From a virus: 44,736 nucleotides of DNA. A program made the position numbers and the translations under genes. The notes beneath the pieces were generated by a model that saw only the letters and a program-made list of their open reading frames with translations, ran no database searches and was not told where the DNA came from. Below, piece after piece: positions 8,583 through 44,736 of this stretch. Each line of letters begins with the position of its first letter. Positions within the stretch are counted from its first letter, which is position 1. Location of the stretch: IMG/VR virus record IMGVR_UViG_3300037466_001855, positions 1 to 44,736 of that record; one strand, written 5' to 3'.

Positions 8583-8617
8583 TTGACAATCGTACGTTAA
8601 TAGCGTACGCTAGTCAA
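8583..8617. promoter_or_regulatory. 35-bp near-palindrome TTGACAATCGTACGTTAATAGCGTACGCTAGTCAA (promoter/operator, readable on both strands)
   Basis: On the plus strand: TTGACA, 17 nt, TACGCT. On the minus strand: TTGACT, 17 nt, TACGAT. The core GTACGTTAATAGCGTAC (8592-8608) belongs to the GTAC-N9-GTAC family. Confidence 0.5.
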
Positions 8618-20590: not shown

Positions 20591-21224
20591 TTGCATCCCT
20601 CTCCATGAGAACGATGGGAATGTGAGGGACTTTATTAAGTAGCAGACCTTTCGTATGGATAGCGGCCTCAGTTCCTGGGCCGTCACGATCCGTCTGTATT
20701 ATAACTGTACGGTAATAACGTACGAATGTCAATAGAGACTTACTGAACTTAGGGGTCTTGAAGTCAGACGCGGAGCCTGGGCTCATGACATCCCACTCTG
20801 GAAATGCCTCTGCCATGCTCAGTGAATTGGCCTCTCCTTCGACAAGTACCAACGTTCCGGACGTCCCTCGTCTGGCCCAGAAGACGGGCTTGGCGTGACC
20901 TGCAGGGCCACGGTACTTGTCCTTTGCGTCGGGGTTCCACACCCGGAGCTTATAGTAATCGCTATCAGGCCACACAAGATAATAGCCAAGATTGTCAAAT
21001 GGTAGATCGAATCCGCGTATCTTCTTTTTTGGCAGCGATCTAATGTACTCCATTTTCTCTTTAAGGTTCTCAACATAACGCTCCTTTGGCGCCATTTCCG
21101 CCACTTTCCCGCCAAGCTCGGAGAGCTCGATGCGTCCGCAACCGCCGTAGCAGTAAGCGTGCGTCTCGTAGACCACGAGACTTGGCGTAGACTCTTCGTG
21201 TTTAATGCAAAAGATTCGTTCCAT
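20520..21224 (-). CDS. DnaG-type DNA primase (CHC2 zinc finger plus TOPRIM)
   Basis: CIKHEESTPSLVVYETHAYCYGGCG is a CHC2-type zinc finger. LVEGEANSLS and IIQTDRDGPG are TOPRIM motifs (E and DxD). Confidence 0.75.
   Translation of the reverse strand: MERIFCIKHEESTPSLVVYETHAYCYGGCGRIELSELGGKVAEMAPKERYVENLKEKMEYIRSLPKKKIRGFDLPFDNLGYYLVWPDSDYYKLRVWNPDAKDKYRGPAGHAKPVFWARRGTSGTLVLVEGEANSLSMAEAFPEWDVMSPGSASDFKTPKFSKSLLTFVRYYRTVIIQTDRDGPGTEAAIHTKGLLLNKVPHIPIVLMERDANEIYCGEGKEKLREEVLRHLPRM
20701..20732 (-). promoter_or_regulatory. GTAC-N9-GTAC promoter/operator inside the primase gene
   Basis: The minus strand reads TTGACAttcGTACGTTATTACCGTACAGT. That is TTGACA, 17 nt, then TACAGT. It lies upstream of the sigma4-like gene. 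Confidence 0.5.
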
Positions 21225-26111: not shown

Positions 26112-26141
26112 AAGCATGTACGATAATAACGTACGCGTCAA
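26112..26141 (-). promoter_or_regulatory. GTAC-N9-GTAC promoter/operator upstream of the PagL-like gene
   Basis: The minus strand reads TTGACGcGTACGTTATTATCGTACATG. The ATG at 26106 lies 8 nt after the TACATG element with no SD, so a leaderless mRNA is predicted. The spacer is 15 nt here. Confidence 0.45.
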
Positions 26142-30583: not shown

Positions 30584-30847
30584 CATTAAAAAATACGATA
30601 ATAATGTACAAGCGGTATTTACGAACGGTTAAAAATATGCTAGTAGTTAAACGTGGTAACGTTGGGACTGGCAAGACATCAGCGTTATCATGGCGTGAAA
30701 TTTCCCTTAATTTAACGGTATAAGCGCTGTAAACGTTTATGCCGTTTACTTTATCTAAAGATAGGCAAGACATCTTCTTTCGGCGTGAACATCCCTTGAG
30801 ATGTTTCCTTATAGAATACATTTATATCATATAAGCATACACTAAGG

Positions 30848-30876
30848 TTGACTAGTGTACGTCATTAGTGTACATT
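30848..30876 (+). promoter_or_regulatory. GTAC-N9-GTAC promoter of the rightward accessory operon
   Basis: The sequence is TTGACTagtGTACGTCATTAGTGTACATT (TTGACT, 17 nt, TACATT). SD ggag and the ATG at 30895 follow. Confidence 0.55.
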
Positions 30877-31122: not shown

Positions 31123-31844
31123 TGGTGAGATTCATTGATTTCCTTTTTGCCGTAGCAATCACGCTATTGTTTGCCTTGATCCTTGTAACCGCAAAAGCGG
31201 CACATGCTGACACCAAGTCTGCTATGGATCAGCTCAGAAAGACCGCCGTACGTATTGAAGGCGCAGGCTGTAGCGGGAGTGGCTCCGTTGTCCAAGGACG
31301 TTCAGGGCATCACTATCTGATTACGAATGCCCATGTCTGCCTTTGCGCAGGTTACCGTAAACATCTCTATGCCACTTACGAAGGTGGCGCGATGGTTCGC
31401 GGTGACGTCTCTAAAATTGACTGGAACGCCGATCTTTGCGCCGCAAGGGTTGATAATTCTTACCCAGCACTAAAGCTTGGCCCAATGCCCGTGCCTTACC
31501 AAGAGGTCAACACTCGGGGCTATCCAAGCGGACGGCTTGCCGAGAGTCACGGAATGCTTAAGGGCTCGGTGTCCTGGGAATATGAAATGGAGATCGGGAT
31601 TATCGGGGAGTGTCCGGCAGGAACTCAGGTGATGCGAGACATTAATGGTCGTGTCAGTGGGTGTGAACTCCATCATTTCTCGGTGCTTTCAAACCTCTAC
31701 GCACGTCCCGGATCTAGTGGAAGTCCTGTCGTTAACGATGACGGCGGATTGGTGGGTGTTATCTCGTCTTGGCATCCTGGCGATGACTACGACGCAGGTA
31801 GCGTCCCTTACGGACAAGTGCGGAGTTTCTTGGAGGGTTTATGA
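31119..31844 (+). CDS. Secreted trypsin-like (S1/Trypsin_2-type) serine protease
   Basis: There is an N-terminal TM/signal. ITNAHV supplies His, DLCAARV supplies Asp and GSSGSPV supplies Ser. Confidence 0.75.
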   Translation: MMVRFIDFLFAVAITLLFALILVTAKAAHADTKSAMDQLRKTAVRIEGAGCSGSGSVVQGRSGHHYLITNAHVCLCAGYRKHLYATYEGGAMVRGDVSKIDWNADLCAARVDNSYPALKLGPMPVPYQEVNTRGYPSGRLAESHGMLKGSVSWEYEMEIGIIGECPAGTQVMRDINGRVSGCELHHFSVLSNLYARPGSSGSPVVNDDGGLVGVISSWHPGDDYDAGSVPYGQVRSFLEGL

Positions 31845-32746
31845 ACACGAGTTGGCATTCGTATCCTAAAGTTTGGGCAATTGGACACGCAGCAGTTGCA
31901 GAGTTGTTCTATGACGATGTGATTGTGCAAGAGAAGGTGGATGGCTCGCAATTCTCTTTTGGCGTATTTGACGGCGTACTCAAGATGCGCTCTAAGGGCC
32001 AGGAGCTTAATATTGATGCTCCTGAGAAGATGTTCGAGAACGCTGCAAAAACCGTCTTCCGTCTGAAAGACAAGCTTGTTCATGGGTATACGTATCGCGC
32101 TGAATACCTTCAGAAACCCAAGCATAACGTACTCGCATATGACCGCACACCTGAATCGCATATCATGATTTTTGATATTAATTCGGGTCAAGAATCTTAC
32201 CTTTCCTACGAAGAGGTTGAGGCCGAAGCAAAGCGCCTGGGGCTCGAAGTGGTCCCTCTTTTATACTCTGGCAAAGTATCTTCGGCTGTTGACCTTGAGA
32301 AGCTTCTAGAAAGAACCTCGGTCTTAGGAGGTCAGAAAATCGAAGGCTTCGTTGCCAAGAACTATGCGCGTTTCGGCAAAGACAAAAAAGCTCTCATGGG
32401 TAAGTTCGTATCCGAAGCGTTCAAGGAAAAGCATAAGAAGACCTGGAAAGAAGAGAACCCAGGACAAAATGACATCGTACAACTTCTGATCGGTCAGTAC
32501 CGAACCCCGGCGCGTTGGGATAAGGCCATCATTCATCTCCGTGAGGCAGGGGCTCTTGAAGGTAGTCCTAAAGATATTGGAAAGATCATTAAGGAAGTTC
32601 CTAAGGATCTGTTGTCTGAGTGTGAGCAAGAGATCAAGGACCAACTATTTCAATGGGCGTTCCCCGACCTGATTCGCGGCGTGAATAGAGGTCTTGCTGA
32701 GTACTATAAAGAGCGATTGTTTAAGTCGCAATTTGAGGGGCGATAA
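31841..32746 (+). CDS. ATP-dependent RNA-ligase-like nucleotidyltransferase
   Basis: QEKVDGSQ is motif I (KxDG). EGFVAKN is motif IV. GKFVSEAFKEKHKK is motif V-like. The product is 301 aa. Confidence 0.55.
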   Translation: MNTSWHSYPKVWAIGHAAVAELFYDDVIVQEKVDGSQFSFGVFDGVLKMRSKGQELNIDAPEKMFENAAKTVFRLKDKLVHGYTYRAEYLQKPKHNVLAYDRTPESHIMIFDINSGQESYLSYEEVEAEAKRLGLEVVPLLYSGKVSSAVDLEKLLERTSVLGGQKIEGFVAKNYARFGKDKKALMGKFVSEAFKEKHKKTWKEENPGQNDIVQLLIGQYRTPARWDKAIIHLREAGALEGSPKDIGKIIKEVPKDLLSECEQEIKDQLFQWAFPDLIRGVNRGLAEYYKERLFKSQFEGR

Positions 32747-34648: not shown

Positions 34649-34963
34649 TCATTGAGAGCTCTTGTTAGACCTCTCCAGAACGGTTTGGAGCAGCGCCAAA
34701 GCTCTCCAAGCTAAGGCTTGTGCGTGTAGCGACTGCGTCTCGGGATCGATCGCATCCCAATTAGGCCCAATATCAATTAAGTGCCGTGCAATACAGTCGG
34801 CATGATCTTTTGACTTCTCTTTGGCCCAGTGCAGAGGCTGACCAGGATTGTGTTTGTCGTTTCCTCGTTTACTGTGCTCAGCAATCGCCATAAGAGCGTC
34901 AGGGAAGTACATCAGAACGCCTGAGAACACTGGCTTATTTTTGCGGGATTGGGAATCGCTCAT
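34649..34963 (-). CDS. Small helical protein resembling the dATP/dGTP pyrophosphohydrolase N-terminal (DUF5664-type) domain
   Basis: HADCIARHLIDIG...DPETQSLHAQALAWRALALLQ matches my recollection of that family's RHL...D.E.G..H...A.....L.LL pattern. Unverified. Confidence 0.35.
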   Translation of the reverse strand: MSDSQSRKNKPVFSGVLMYFPDALMAIAEHSKRGNDKHNPGQPLHWAKEKSKDHADCIARHLIDIGPNWDAIDPETQSLHAQALAWRALALLQTVLERSNKSSQ

Positions 34964-35163
34964 AGATCCTTCGGAGGCTGGGTGTTAATGAGAAAAATCA
35001 TTGCGCGTTTTGCTCTAATGAGCTGAGTGTGGATAAGCTCTAGCGCCTTTAACTTCTGCTCAAGTGTTGCCTTCTGATCCTGCTGAATTCCTGCAACGGT
35101 TTGAGAAACAGCGAATAGCCAATTATTGAACTCTCGCTTGTACTGGTCCCTGATATTAGACAT
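34960..35163 (-). CDS. Small coiled-coil hypothetical protein
   Basis: 67 aa. ATGA-type overlaps on both sides. Confidence 0.5.
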   Translation of the reverse strand: MSNIRDQYKREFNNWLFAVSQTVAGIQQDQKATLEQKLKALELIHTQLIRAKRAMIFLINTQPPKDL

Positions 35164-36148
35164 TAAGCAGCCTCCTCCATGAAGCGATCACACTAGACAG
35201 TCGGAACTTTGGATTAGCTTTTACCTTAGGGCGATTACCGCTGTGCCACGCCATGACTCTGTCAATGACGGAGCGTACGTTACGGCAGTCCAATGTTTCA
35301 GACGGATGAAAGAGGACTTCGCGAGCGGCCCCGATAGGGTGAGTTAGGACTGGTGTGCCTACTGCGTTGGGCTCTGAAAAGCACAGGCCGAATGTCTCGG
35401 GAAAAACTATGTTAGGATAAAATAAACAAAGGCTGTTTCTAAGGTGATGTATGACATCAGCGTGAGGTAAGGCACCCAGCGTGGTAACTCCTTGCTGAAC
35501 TCCTTCATAGTTCGGAAGGTAGCCGGGATTCGCGATATACAATCGAAAGTCAGGATTGAAGCTAAGAAGATTTTTAAAAACAGCAAGAGCATAGTCGATC
35601 CCTTTATGCGGCGAACTAATCCACAAGAGTTTGTTAGGGTCTACCGGTGTACTGTCCGGCGCCAAGTCGTCTGAAATCGGATTGTAAATTACTTTGACCG
35701 GAAACTGGCCGGAGTAGCCTTGCGGGTAGAGAGTGTCTTGAATTTGGGTCTTGTGGAAGTTCGACACGGCAATAGTCGTGAAATCGCTTTGTTTGACCAT
35801 GTCCCGCGCTGTCTCAGCAGAGCAAAGGTCATGATTCCAGAGGTAGTGTCGAGCTCTGGGGAAGCGCTCCTTAGCTTTACGTAGCGTTTCGGGAGAGCGT
35901 AGGGAGATGACGTAATCCGGAGGAGACATGGTGTCCCCAATCGGCCTGTAGACTACATCGCCTTCATCAAAATAAAGAACCCTACAGTGCTGTTGTACAG
36001 CTACAGAAAACAGTCCTGTTGCAGCAAGTCCCTCGGCAACTCGTACAACGGTCGCTTCTGTGCCGCCTAGCGCTTGTGTAGCTAGAACGTGAGGATCATA
36101 AGGCTTATTACATACTTCATCGATAAACAGGACAACAGGTAATGCCAT
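35156..36148 (-). CDS. GT-B fold (GT4-like) glycosyltransferase
   Basis: The N-terminal LGGTEATVVRVAEGLAATG and the C-terminal PETFGLCFSEPNAVGTPVL (E-x7-E motif) fit the family. The product is 330 aa. Confidence 0.6.
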   Translation of the reverse strand: MALPVVLFIDEVCNKPYDPHVLATQALGGTEATVVRVAEGLAATGLFSVAVQQHCRVLYFDEGDVVYRPIGDTMSPPDYVISLRSPETLRKAKERFPRARHYLWNHDLCSAETARDMVKQSDFTTIAVSNFHKTQIQDTLYPQGYSGQFPVKVIYNPISDDLAPDSTPVDPNKLLWISSPHKGIDYALAVFKNLLSFNPDFRLYIANPGYLPNYEGVQQGVTTLGALPHADVIHHLRNSLCLFYPNIVFPETFGLCFSEPNAVGTPVLTHPIGAAREVLFHPSETLDCRNVRSVIDRVMAWHSGNRPKVKANPKFRLSSVIASWRRLLNV

Positions 36149-36151
36149 CCT

Positions 36152-36184
36152 GTACAGTGTACGTTATTAACGTACAAGCGTCAA
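36152..36184 (-). promoter_or_regulatory. Promoter with perfect 17-bp palindrome GTACGTTATTAACGTAC (36159-36175)
   Basis: The minus strand reads TTGACGcttGTACGTTAATAACGTACACT (TTGACG, 17 nt, TACACT). The ATG at 36148 is 7 nt after the -10 with no SD. Confidence 0.6.
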
Positions 36185-39094: not shown

Positions 39095-39285
39095 ATAATG
39101 ACCCTCCTTGGGGTTACGTATTGCGCATCCTGCGCCATCACCAGAACCACTTTAAACGCCTAACGGACGTAAAAAGTCATAACGGACACCAGTAAGTTAA
39201 GACATACCTAACTTACTAGCGACACACTTACGATAATAGAGTACGCGTACGCTAATGTACAGAAAACAATTGTTAACGTACTAGC

Positions 39286-39813
39286 CTATGCTAAGATTGC
39301 GGCGTCAACTTCGTCCTGTCCGATAGAGAGATAATGCGTAGTTGAGGCTAAAGATGCATGACCTAGCGCTTTTTGTGCAGCTACAACGTTCTTTTCGGTC
39401 CTGAGGTAGACGTTCATGCCAAAGGTCTTACGCATGGAATGGGTCGATACAGTACCGGACAGACGGGCCTTACGGGATGCCTCTTTAATGACACGCCAAG
39501 CGTGCTGCCTGGTCATGGGGAATAGTTTACCCACAACGCCTGTTTTGAGGTAACTTTGTAACGCCTGCTTAGCGAGAGGGTGTAGGGGAATGGTGCGACT
39601 CTGGCGCTTACCCTTCATGTTTCGGCGGTGTACGGTAAGCGTGTCCCGAATGCTACCGTCCTCTTGTGACACATCCTCGATACGCAAAGAGAGGAGCTCT
39701 GAAATACGAAAGCCGGTTTTAATGCCAACAATGAACAAGGCACGATCTCGTAAAGAGGTCATTTGATCTAGGATTAAGGTCAACTCCGAGTCTTTAAGAT
39801 CTCTCGATTTCAT
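39286..39813 (-). CDS. Compact (175-aa) tyrosine recombinase, catalytic domain only
   Basis: RDRALFIVGIKTGFRISELLSL supplies Arg, HSMRKTF supplies HxxR and LGHASLASTTHYL supplies His...Tyr. There is no N-terminal core-binding or arm domain. Confidence 0.7.
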   Translation of the reverse strand: MKSRDLKDSELTLILDQMTSLRDRALFIVGIKTGFRISELLSLRIEDVSQEDGSIRDTLTVHRRNMKGKRQSRTIPLHPLAKQALQSYLKTGVVGKLFPMTRQHAWRVIKEASRKARLSGTVSTHSMRKTFGMNVYLRTEKNVVAAQKALGHASLASTTHYLSIGQDEVDAAILA

Positions 39814-39843
39814 ACACACCTCTAGTTACAAATCTTTGAATTG

Positions 39844-40080
39844 TCACTTCTCAGCTTCTAAAGCCTCTGTTGCTTCCATGCAGGCAATGCAGTGCGGTCG
39901 AGATGGTTCCTGCATGCAGCAGGCGTTGTGAATGTCATCGCGAGCCTTCTCAAGTGCAACGATTAGTCGCTCGACTCTATTCGGCCCTTCTTTCGACCTA
40001 ATGTCCGCGCATTTGGTGCAAAGTACACGCGTACTCGTCCCATCAAAGTTAATTGTTTGCCAATCGTGGTCGCAGTTCAT
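39844..40080 (-). CDS. Cys-rich small protein (trimmed to ATG 40080)
   Basis: 78 aa beginning MNCDHDW, with CTKC and CIAC further in. Confidence 0.5.
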   Translation of the reverse strand: MNCDHDWQTINFDGTSTRVLCTKCADIRSKEGPNRVERLIVALEKARDDIHNACCMQEPSRPHCIACMEATEALEAEK

Positions 40081-40103
40081 AAAACAAACTCCATTCAATT
40101 GTC

Positions 40104-40475
40104 TCATTTGCGAACCCGCTTCACTTCATCTCGAATAGAGAGCAGGCCCTGCATTGGATTATCTCCGCTGTTTCCAGCGATGTTGTTGATGCGCTCAAGC
40201 GCAGCGCGGAGCTTGTCTCGCTCTTTAACAATGGGCCATTCAAGGTCCAACCGGGCATTAGCGATGTTCTTTTTTGCTTCGTCTAACTCAGCGCGGAGTT
40301 GCATGACCTCCATTTGAAACCGATTTGAGTTCTCGCGGGCGTCGTCACGCTCAGCTCGCAGATGTTTGTTTTCGTTTTCCAGTGCTTCAATGTCTTCCCA
40401 ATCAGATGAATAATCGTCACCTTTCGGAAGAGGACCCCAATCACTTGGTTTTCCAGACAAACCGTCTCTACTCAT
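40104..40475 (-). CDS. Coiled-coil hypothetical protein (trimmed to ATG 40475)
   Basis: 123 aa. The leader tgaatggagtttgttt is shared with the gene at 40080. Confidence 0.55.
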   Translation of the reverse strand: MSRDGLSGKPSDWGPLPKGDDYSSDWEDIEALENENKHLRAERDDARENSNRFQMEVMQLRAELDEAKKNIANARLDLEWPIVKERDKLRAALERINNIAGNSGDNPMQGLLSIRDEVKRVRK

Positions 40476-40508
40476 AAACAAACTCCATTCAATTCGCGCT
40501 CAATGAAT

Positions 40509-40692
40509 CCTGCGGGCCGTTGACCGCTACGTTTACCCCTTGCGCTCGGACTTAGGCTTTCGCCGCAGCAGGGCACCCGCAGGCTTGTTTCCTCTGGGCC
40601 GGGCTTGATACCGGCTGGACCCTAAACAGCGCGGGCATCCGGGTCCTGGTTATTCGCGCTAAACCATGCGTGCCCTTCCACGCCGCCAGAGG
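40509..40692 (-). ncRNA. Candidate structured RNA (unclassified), GC-rich and ORF-free
   Basis: No ORF of 60 aa or more lies on either strand across 40482-40709. Nested GC helices can be read directly: 40509-16/40576-83 (8 bp), 40591-97/40686-92 (7 bp), 40598-602/40611-15, 40668-72/40679-83. Helices 40617-22/40641-46 and 40628-33/40655-60 interleave in a pseudoknot topology. A GGC-GAAA-GCC hairpin (minus sense) lies at 40555-64. Confidence 0.4.
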
Positions 40693-40709
40693 TTACAATT
40701 TAATTTGTC

Positions 40710-40895
40710 TCATCGACCTAAACTCTCAGTGTTTCGTTTAGACCAATCCCATTCATAAAGTGCGATAGGCTTTAACATCGCCCGATAACGTTCGTTCTGC
40801 CAAAGCCACCTATTGAAGCCGAATCTAAACCGACCGTAAGCGGTGTATTGAAATGACCACCACAAAACCCTTAAATTAATCACACAATCACTCAT
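40710..40895 (-). CDS. Trp/Arg-rich 61-aa protein (trimmed)
   Basis: The ATG at 40895 follows aaggagttttt. The sequence begins MSDCVINLRVLWWSFQY. Confidence 0.5.
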   Translation of the reverse strand: MSDCVINLRVLWWSFQYTAYGRFRFGFNRWLWQNERYRAMLKPIALYEWDWSKRNTESLGR

Positions 40896-40935
40896 AAAAA
40901 CTCCTTCGATTTCGGCCTCACGAGACAATTTGTGA

Positions 40936-41151
40936 TTATGTAACCTTCTGGCTTTCTCGGCACTCATGATTTCCGTTCGCACGCTGAAACCTTGCTGAAA
41001 CAGAGCGGACGCCGTCGATATAGCCTTCTAACCACTTGTAGGCTGCGTCGTTAGTAACGCTTCCGGAACGAAGTCGGTCATAAGCGTTCATCAGGTCACC
41101 AACGGCGTTGTACCAATTTGTGCAGCACTTACATGCTTTGTTGTCACTCAT
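40936..41151 (-). CDS. Hypothetical 71-aa protein
   Basis: It has the same aaggagtttttATGagtga initiation cassette as 40895. Confidence 0.55.
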   Translation of the reverse strand: MSDNKACKCCTNWYNAVGDLMNAYDRLRSGSVTNDAAYKWLEGYIDGVRSVSARFQRANGNHECRESQKVT

Positions 41152-41188
41152 AAAAACTCCTTTAAAATCAGCTACAGGTTACAGTTGC

Positions 41189-44179: not shown

Positions 44180-44196
44180 GTACAATAATATCGTAC
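44180..44196. promoter_or_regulatory. GTAC-N9-GTAC element GTACAATAATATCGTAC upstream of the 44043 operon
   Basis: It has the same spacing and AT-rich centre as the other family members. No clear TTGAC is correctly placed on the minus strand. Confidence 0.35.
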
Positions 44197-44599: not shown

Positions 44600-44625
44600 G
44601 GGGCGGTGAGGGGGTGGGGTGGGGG
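44600..44625 (+). other. Canonical G-quadruplex motif GGGGcggtgaGGGGGtGGGGtGGGGG
   Basis: Four G-runs of 4 or more with loops of 6, 1 and 1 nt. It straddles the start of the terminal repeat, and three of the runs recur at 1-16. Confidence 0.6.
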
Positions 44626-44736
44626 ACGAATTTGATTTAAAATATATCCATATACACATCCGCACATAATTTTTTGCTATTTTTTACGGCCTAATTCCAG
44701 ACATTTAGGGCTAGTGGCTATCTCAAATATATGCGT
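44610..44736. repeat. Terminal direct repeat copy 2, identical to 1-127
   Basis: See copy 1. Confidence 0.95.

Follow-up and report, generated by a model that had tools for sequence, protein, structure and literature searches.

A tRNA-shaped domain in a gene-junction insertion of a phage genome appears to belong to an undescribed RNA family

What is carried by a GC-rich interval, devoid of long open reading frames (ORFs), that separates two small genes in a phage genome? The interval, positions 40476-40709 as delimited by an original prediction made from the letters alone, lies in IMG/VR record IMGVR_UViG_3300037466_001855, a stretch of 44,736 nucleotides (nt) that is referred to in its entirety as the window, and it is read here on the minus strand. 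The original prediction described a multi-helix, pseudoknotted RNA candidate that could be a riboswitch-like leader, a ribozyme or a stable phage noncoding RNA (ncRNA). Here, we describe a comparative analysis of this locus. An element of ~190 nt (40508-40700) is a discrete insertion into an ordinary stop/start junction, and its first domain, domain 1, appears from its conserved blocks and covarying pairs to belong to a group of tRNA-shaped RNAs, an undescribed family that is absent from Rfam 15. The reading that we favour, and to which we give about an even chance of being correct, is that the element is a horizontally mobile, co-transcribed, tRNA-mimicking ncRNA module situated in an ordinary gene junction.

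Domain 1 (40590-40692), as delimited by homologues, covariation and folds, extends from the 5' strand of its closing stem through the 3' strand and the A that follows. This stem, P1, is acceptor-like and comprises 7 base pairs (bp), with CCUCUGG (40686-40692) paired to CCAGAGG (40591-40597) in both the minimum free energy (MFE) fold and the covariation analysis. Parsed blocks and the alignment define two further hairpins: hp1, GCGUG-GAAGGG-CACGC (40668-40683), an invariant D-arm-like hairpin positioned 2 nt past P1, and hp4, GCCGG-UAUCAAGC-CCGGC (40598-40615), an invariant T-arm-like hairpin that directly abuts the 3' strand of P1. The centre of the domain (40616-40667) is hypervariable; in the window allele it holds hairpins 2 and 3 and a loop-loop pseudoknot, and in other copies it consists of unrelated inserts of 20-130 nt.

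With a permissive blastn search of GenBank phages, matches to the hp4 region were obtained in DNA that carries no annotation, in Caulobacter phage DMCA and in the Komagataeibacter phages phiKX1/2, and follow-up searches added Pseudanabaena phage Pan3 and the end of a Roseomonas mucosa prophage. The architecture of these homologues consists of a 7-bp closing stem, CG/CA, GCGUG-GAUGGA-CAYGC, a non-homologous centre of 85-130 nt, and GCCGG-UAUCAAGY-CCGGC abutting the 3' strand of the stem. Window positions 40590-40692 possess every feature of the family: the 7-bp covarying stem, CG/CA, GCGUG-GAWGGR-CAYGC, a variable centre, and GCCGG-UAUCAAGY-CCGGC abutting the 3' strand. The closing stems of the homologues are GUUGCGG/CCGCAGC, GCUGCGG/CCGCAGC and UGCGCGG/CCGCGCA, as compared with CCUCUGG/CCAGAGG in the window. 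Covariation was assessed in a gapless, sequence-driven alignment of seven trimmed cores, in which 97.5% of the cells pair, versus 20-44% in controls with slid partners. P1 has changed on both sides at five of its seven pairs and is represented by four different stem sequences. Pairing is never lost in hp1 and hp4, which are otherwise invariant across the seven cores; the hp1 of Roseomonas carries two compensatory pairs (AUGUG/CACAU) and that of phiKX1 a single G-C to G-U change.

MFE folding of the window and phiKX1 units yields P1, 2 nt, hp1 and then hp4 abutting P1; P1 and hp4 are also recovered in DMCA and in Roseomonas, the latter with one spacer nt, and in these two the hp1 region folds differently. 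A terminator-like hairpin with a U-rich tail, called by a terminator scan, lies 24 nt past domain 1 in Pan3, and similar hairpins can be read by eye after domain 1 of phiKX1 and DMCA, that of phiKX1 having a U-rich tail. The intrinsic terminator seen by eye after the phiKX1 copy was not called by the scan. The phiKX1 unit is situated ~120 nt downstream of a tRNA-Met gene. Judged from these surroundings, the Pan3, phiKX1 and DMCA copies look like stand-alone genes. None of the DMCA, phiKX1/2, Pan3 or Roseomonas loci matches an Rfam 15 family, and sequences of the domain-1 family were not found in the searchable literature.

The geometry of domain 1 is that of a tRNA: a 7-bp stem, a 2-nt connector, a hairpin with a GG loop in the D position, a variable centre, a 5-bp hairpin in the T position, and then an A. 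This cloverleaf arrangement is found in alignment columns 4-10/52-58, 11-12, 34-38/47-51 and 59, as well as in the MFE folds, and is lost in the copies L001, L005 and L042 described below. The bases that follow the closing stem are AAAC, AAGU or AAUA. The hp4 loop, UAUCAAGY, corresponds to the T-loop consensus, UUCRANY, with one extra A. Several of the variable inserts contain tRNA-like pieces, namely a D-arm and a T-arm in Pan3, GGGUUCGAUUCCC in L039, and a T-arm-like piece in L043. The L048 insert shares 77% identity over ~100 nt with a portion of a tRNA/tmRNA-like cluster in Klebsiella phage phi1_146050. That cluster (L065, PP889499.1, ~33.1-34.7 kb) is itself a 1.7-kb stretch that is annotated as tiny hypothetical proteins and is in fact an RNA cluster; it includes tRNA-Asn, tRNA-Gln, further tRNA-like units, and a permuted-tmRNA-like match (33 bits, below the cut-off) with a tag-like ORF, ANDDVVLMAA*. 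At 6768-6875 of L039, a contig end at which the sequence is cut, the T-arm plus acceptor-like sequence GUCGGUUCGAGUCCGACCCGCACCUC weakly resembles the acceptor piece of permuted tmRNA, and either a phage tmRNA or an att site may lie here.

How does this account compare with the structure proposed originally? The prediction was right about the object and wrong about its details. The 234-nt interval indeed contains no ORF of at least 60 amino acids (aa) and is GC-rich (61.5% versus ~48% nearby), it lies between two small genes with a Shine-Dalgarno (SD) sequence and ATG directly after it, and all of the helices that had been listed are present. The MFE fold recovers P1 (40686-92/40591-97), P2 (40576-83/40509-16), the stem that closes domain 2, both of the short hairpins, and the GGC-GAAA-GCC hairpin. 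The H-type pseudoknot formed by two interleaved 6-bp helices did not hold up as a general feature: it is specific to the alleles of the window and the near-identical L044 and is absent from all other homologues, its loop-loop pairing lies outside the MFE fold, and a 6-bp loop-loop complement appears in 17 of 400 shuffles. The predicted GNRA hairpin of domain 2 is present and is not conserved, being restricted, like hairpins 2 and 3, to the window and L044 alleles. Thus, the pseudoknot and inner hairpins of the window allele are incidental; what is conserved is P1, hp1, hp4, the linker and P2. Among homologues, compensatory changes have preserved the domain 1 closing helix in distant phages, and the inner features are not conserved.

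Folding energy, which had been proposed as a test of the candidate, did not single out the segment. As a whole, it folds with z = -1.40 on the minus strand, with 15 of 200 shuffles as good, and with z = -0.44 on the plus strand. If the closing helices are kept constant, the interior of either domain, in the three alleles that were available first, folds no better than its dinucleotide-shuffled versions (z from -0.5 to +0.8), and the number of stems of at least 5 bp (9 versus 6.1 +/- 1.4 in shuffles) is only mildly unusual. When the arms of the conserved scaffold were swapped for GAAA tetraloops, the expected junction formed with z = -7.3, and none of 1000 shuffles was as good. The object is more interesting than its folding energy suggests. 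In agreement with the prediction, no known family could be assigned: Rfam 15, run at the gathering score on the whole window and permissively (E <= 10) on the region and its homologues, gives nothing relevant. The ribozyme option found no matching model, the best, twister-P1, scoring 12.4 bits where the cut-off is 67.2; the riboswitch-like leader is not supported, the sequence between P2 and the start codon not being conserved among copies; and a degraded protein-coding remnant is contradicted by length differences that are not multiples of three and by the lack of a conserved reading frame, the small ORFs of the interval differing in frame from homologue to homologue. Of the three options offered originally, a stable phage ncRNA fits best.

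Close relatives of the complete element are found in uncultured phage contigs, which are designated here by locus numbers (L). Exact-pattern scans of viral, metagenome and genome collections returned only L005 and chance matches in coding DNA, and neighbour-protein scans in IMG/VR returned no element-bearing relatives. Related contigs were reached through neighbour proteins, namely L001/L002, whose flanks are 99.9% identical to those of the window, and L005/L012, which come from an unrelated phage of 37% GC; a covariance model run over homologues of a small recombinase added L042, L043, L044/L045, L048/L052 and the diverged L039. There are seven close copies in addition to L039. The core element common to the seven, AAAUUGUAA ... 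CCCGCAGGA (40508-40700), was defined from covariance-model matches, alignments and parsed blocks, and comprises domain 1, a linker and domain 2. The scaffold of the close copies consists of AAUUGUAA, P1 CCUCUGG/CCAGAGG, AAACAAG, P2 CCUGCGGG/CCCGCAGG, and usually UGCC. The helix interiors are unrelated inserts of 20-165 nt among the copies; in the close copies, the first interior measures 40-165 nt and the second 36-82 nt. The linker AAACAAG (40584-40590) contributes ACAA (40585-40588) to a short helix with UUGU (40695-40698), P1a, and the spacing between the two domains is a single G. Domain 2 (40509-40583), in which P2 closes a variable interior of 36-82 nt, is found only in the phage lineage of the window; UGCC follows the 5' strand of P2, and there is a loose GGUAAA motif.

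P1 and P2 are nearly invariant within this lineage, the sole changes, both in L048, being one C-G to A-U, which falls in P2, and one mismatch. L039, found with the structure-aware model and uncertain in its alignment, has undergone several changes and includes G-U pairs, with both helices retained. The element is single-copy in every genome, measures 190-340 nt, and in every phage context has the orientation of the flanking genes; its G-U pairs and A-rich unpaired segments are obtained on the minus-strand reading only. It is polymorphic for presence, being missing from the related phages L046, L047 and L056-L064, and it has spread horizontally: L012, a 37%-GC phage, carries a copy that is GC-rich even in that genome and has no other similarity to the window, only a fragment of a coiled-coil gene being in common over +/-10 kb. 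That gene belongs to a mosaic family with the motif ERDxLRA, a member of which lies downstream of the element in six of seven contexts, including the unrelated L012. PHROGs and Pfam assign no function to this family, and the association keeps a cis-acting or a partner-protein role open.

Two of these contigs yielded further observations. At 508-545 of L044, inside an extra insert of 115 nt, the direct repeat CTAGAAGTTA(G/A/C)TGCA occurs twice, ~21-22 nt apart, and it recurs at ~9940-9990 of L014, where an unrelated Zn-ribbon/coiled-coil gene lies downstream of it; the repeat may serve to bind a protein. In L012 (8637-13173), the element lies among genes whose translations resemble a macro-domain protein, a ribose-phosphate pyrophosphokinase, an HNH endonuclease and a nicotinamide phosphoribosyltransferase, a neighbourhood that looks like NAD-salvage or counter-defence genes.

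The junction into which the element is inserted can be recognized elsewhere in the locus, which is a run of small minus-strand accessory genes. Upstream, the TGA stop (40710-40712) of a 61-aa gene (40710-40895, minus strand) abuts the element, and in L005/L012 an unrelated gene takes the position of this gene. Downstream lies the 123-aa ERDxLRA coiled-coil gene (40104-40475, minus strand), with its ATG at 40475 and an SD, GGAG, at 40483-40486. By junction comparison, the 3' flank (40476-40507) is a generic gene junction composed of the hairpin AUUCAUU..AAUUGAAU, the SD GGAG and GUUUGUUU, the last of which pairs with AGACAAAU (40703-40710). A weak model match at 40076-40108 proved to be the next gene junction, one gene downstream. 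This paralogous "empty" junction, ATGAGACAA|TTGAATGGAGTTTGTTTTATGA (40078-40108), corresponds to the left and right flanks of the element joined together. Since it carries the same flanks, the pairing of AGACAAAU with GUUUGUUU is assigned to the generic junction, as is the 3' strand of the SD-proximal hairpin. L042, L043 and L048 have other flanks, and the 3' flank of the window type is not conserved there. A 35-nt junction is thus repeated on both sides of the coiled-coil gene, and, in addition, two neighbouring small genes have a near-identical ribosome-binding site and start region, AAGGAGTTTTTATGAGTGA, at 40888-40930 and 41144-41186 of the window. These near-identical start regions, together with the repeated 35-nt junction (40078-40108), suggest a cassette-like shuffling of small genes at conserved junctions.

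Non-tRNA RNAs that carry tRNA-like domains provide the closest parallels. In the tRNA-like domain of tmRNA, the tRNA-like module of the Y RNA YrlA, and the RNase P-processed precursors of the C4 RNA of phages P1/P7 and the CI RNA of phage P4, as in domain 1, an end-closed stem is stacked on a 5-bp T-like arm. The likeness extends to the 2-nt connector leading to a D-like arm with a GG loop, to the replacement of the anticodon region by variable RNA, and to the phage-borne location, which in phiKX1 adjoins a tRNA gene. Unlike these RNAs, the element lacks a canonical T-loop (UAUCAAGY is 8 nt), a CCA, a G3-U70 pair and a tag ORF, matches no Rfam 15 tRNA, tmRNA, Y-RNA or C4 model, and in the window lineage possesses a second stem-closed domain. 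Canonical phage tRNA genes share with domain 1 the 7-bp acceptor-like stem, the 2-nt connector, the 5-bp T-like stem abutting the 3' strand and the A that follows, and they too are free of ORFs and GC-rich relative to the genome; they differ in that domain 1 is negative with ARAGORN and the Rfam tRNA model, has no conserved anticodon arm, and has a D-like stem of 5 bp with a 6-nt loop. In the twister ribozyme (RF03160), P4 (CCGG-UCCCAAGC-CCGG) resembles hp4 (CCGG-UAUCAAGC-CCGG), but only this hairpin aligns; the element has neither the twister P2 nor the UAA cleavage loop, and it carries a change in the CC that forms the pseudoknot.

The PeSLs of T4-type phages, a kind of mobile regulatory cassette, are described in PMC2839356 and PMC4122927 as composite promoter plus stem-loop (promoter-terminator) motifs that are present many times per genome. 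They resemble the element as conserved intergenic units at gene boundaries in hyperplastic accessory regions, tied to modular shuffling, and differ from it in that the element measures 190-340 nt, is single-copy, has no promoter motif that we could find, and contains helices that covary.

A number of other candidates were rejected. Resemblances to twister, hepatitis delta virus-like and hammerhead ribozymes and to group I introns were dismissed both by eye, against the known consensus, and by covariance model; Rfam 15 gives no gathering-score match to self-cleaving ribozymes or group I/II introns, and the flanking ORFs are unrelated genes rather than exons. For C4/CI antisense RNAs there is no RF01695 match and no complementarity of at least 12 nt beyond chance 11-12-mers, shorter pairings not being excluded. 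Contrary to a guide RNA, nothing elsewhere in the genome matches or complements the variable inserts apart from 11-12-mers at chance level; inserts of different copies are not reverse complements of one another, contrary to an inverton; and a diversity-generating retroelement or retron was set aside, the ORFs scanned including no reverse transcriptase and the segment not being repeated. The "transposase" beside the DMCA copy is an ISL3 DDE enzyme, which removes the TnpB omega-RNA. An 11-nt identity, ACCTCTGGCGG, to lambda OR1 was judged coincidental.

The comparisons establish a structure of RNA type that is under selection, is a discrete insertion and has spread between unrelated phages; its transcription, processing and role as an RNA are inferences. 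If the element acts as a tRNA-mimicking ncRNA module, the following sequence of events can be proposed. The minus-strand module would be read as part of an operon of accessory genes, and the resulting RNA would mimic the acceptor/T-arm minihelix and elbow of a tRNA, with hp4 (loop UAUCAAGY) stacking on the 3' strand of the closing stem, followed by the discriminator-like A. We infer from this mimicry that host tRNA-handling enzymes, RNase P first, would recognize the RNA and excise it from the polycistronic transcript. This would release a small, stable RNA that acts as a decoy or adaptor for a tRNA-binding factor, and the module would move between phages by recombination. A bolder version, which we offer tentatively and regard as unlikely, is that domain 1 represents a new class of phage tRNA mimics in which the invariant hp1/hp4 elbow docks on a universally conserved tRNA-binding machine and the swappable centre and domain 2 are cargo, making it a horizontally traded RNA platform and possibly a counter-defence decoy. 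The elbow might dock, for example, on RNase P or the ribosome, on a modification enzyme, or on a defence nuclease that targets tRNA.

Several observations weigh against this interpretation. Membership in the tRNA or tmRNA families fails every model-based test. ARAGORN reports 0 tRNA genes by default and with -ps, its calls appear at -ps70 only and with pairings that differ from the proposed cloverleaf, and the Rfam tRNA model RF00005 has no match at E <= 10 on 116 nt. Conservation does not extend to an anticodon arm, the centre being non-homologous among copies, and the 8-nt loop UAUCAAGY is not a canonical T-loop, so that the T-loop reading requires one extra nucleotide. No CCA is encoded, and in the Roseomonas copy the base after the stem is G. 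As for tmRNA, ARAGORN -m gives nothing, no Rfam tmRNA match covers the element, position 3 of P1 is U-A, and there is no tag-like ORF. Furthermore, L001, L005 and L042 have lost or altered hp1 and hp4 and yet keep P1 and P2; the tRNA-like geometry is thus not universal. Inside the window lineage P1 and P2 show no covariation save for one compensatory pair, in L048, a near-invariance that fits recent spread or recognition at the DNA level equally well. Finally, the thermodynamic z-scores are modest (-1.9, -2.6, -2.25 and -1.4 for the window, phiKX1, DMCA and Roseomonas units, respectively), and the family alignment has only ~8-12 members.

Could the conserved blocks instead be recognized as DNA, with folding incidental? 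The element might be a selfish mobile insertion, small and non-autonomous, either resembling miniature inverted-repeat transposable elements or spread by homing or gene conversion. Its presence/absence polymorphism, the empty-junction paralogue, the differing position relative to the recombinase gene in L048 and L039, the identical scaffold in an unrelated phage with P1 and P2 sequence-invariant within the lineage, and the short AATTG-like direct repeats at both edges in two contexts are all compatible with such an origin. However, the AATTG-like repeats are inconsistent, neither terminal inverted repeats nor a consistent target-site duplication is present, each genome has one copy, and no transposase or endonuclease co-occurs, the coiled-coil fragment being all that L012 and the window have in common over +/-10 kb. 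The covariation of P1 and hp1 in the wider family, the strand-specific G-U pairs, and the stand-alone appearance of the Pan3 copy, with its scan-called hairpin, and of the phiKX1 and DMCA copies further make a purely DNA-level insertion improbable. A related proposal, that domain 1 is or contains an attP-like or target site of a tyrosine recombinase, as integrases use tRNA and tmRNA genes, draws on proximity: in the window lineage the element is 0.7-1.8 kb from a small tyrosine recombinase of 170-186 aa, the DMCA copy is ~300 nt from an integrase gene, the Roseomonas copy stands at a prophage end adjoining a lysozyme gene, and tmRNA-like T-arm and acceptor sequence lies nearby in L039. We consider it very unlikely, given that no recombinase is found within +/-10 kb in L012 or 1.5 kb in Pan3, that phage relatives with the same recombinase are without the element, that the copies are complete RNA units rather than 3' fragments, and that some variants are explained only by RNA-type pairing (G-U).

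Alternatively, the RNA might act in cis, as a leader or intercistronic element that controls translation, processing or stability of the ERDxLRA gene or protects the upstream mRNA. That gene follows in most contexts, L012 included, and the association is only partial; the paired window-type flanks (AGACAAAU/GUUUGUUU) and the hairpin abutting the SD would give a structured ribosome-binding region in which the stop and start codons are brought together, and no promoter-like or terminator-like site flanks the element in the window. This explanation is distinctly unlikely: the 3' flank and the distance to the ATG (15-131 nt) vary among L042, L043, L044 and L048, the flank pairing also occurs in the empty junction and so is a property of the junction, 26 other loci have relatives of the coiled-coil gene without the element, and domain 1 of DMCA, phiKX1 and Pan3 is followed by a hairpin (scan-called only in Pan3) rather than a gene start. 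That the domain is a decayed remnant of a tRNA, tmRNA or protein-coding gene with no present function, as its tRNA-like topology, the T-arm-like pieces in the Pan3, L039 and L043 inserts, and the homology of the L048 insert to the phi1_146050 cluster might suggest, is highly improbable. The invariance of hp1 and hp4, loops included, across phages of alphaproteobacteria, of a cyanobacterium and of unknown hosts and the maintenance of P1 by compensation indicate purifying selection rather than decay; moreover, the element remains GC-rich in the 37%-GC genome, and neither frame nor length behaves as in a coding sequence.

The window itself is a complete phage genome of ~44.6 kb, either terminally redundant or circularly assembled, with an exact 127-bp direct terminal repeat (1-127 and 44610-44736). 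Its products include a family-A DNA polymerase, a DnaB-like helicase, a PD-(D/E)XK nuclease, an RNA ligase, an HNH endonuclease and a tyrosine recombinase, and its terminase is <30% identical to any GenBank phage terminase. The recombinase (39286-39819, minus strand) is a 177-aa protein consisting of the catalytic domain only; it has 686 homologues at E <= 1e-20, and the 120 that are listed measure 169-207 aa, many being on phage contigs of 41-48 kb. The RNA ligase (31841-32746, plus strand; 301 aa) matches Pfam RNA_ligase and RNA_lig_T4_1 and may be relevant if the phage faces tRNA-cleaving defences. A palindromic sequence, GTACGnTAATAnCGTAC, forms eight strong sites on both strands of the window (8592-8608, 20707-20723, 26118-26134, 30593-30609, 30857-30873, 36159-36175, 39228-39244 and 44180-44196), some of them preceded by TTGACA; with up to 3 mismatches there are 19 matches versus 0.6 expected, and from its sequence and placement it looks like a phage operator or promoter at operon boundaries. 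Additionally, a gene for a dATP/dGTP diphosphohydrolase N-domain (34649-34963) adjoins a glycosyltransferase gene (35156-36148), to which the relatives L047, L048 and L056 add GHMP kinase, NTP transferase, SIS and pyrophosphatase genes; this set may be a DNA hypermodification or sugar-nucleotide module.

The combination of invariant hairpins across very different hosts with a freely changing closing stem and a swappable centre speaks for a partner in the cell that is itself conserved, and for an RNA built of modules. Should domain 1 function as a tRNA mimic, it would represent a phage ncRNA family that is uncatalogued in Rfam 15 and in the searchable literature. The putative counter-defence neighbours of the element in L012 make an anti-defence role worth testing, and the family members present in cultured phages of Caulobacter, Komagataeibacter and Pseudanabaena render these proposals directly testable.

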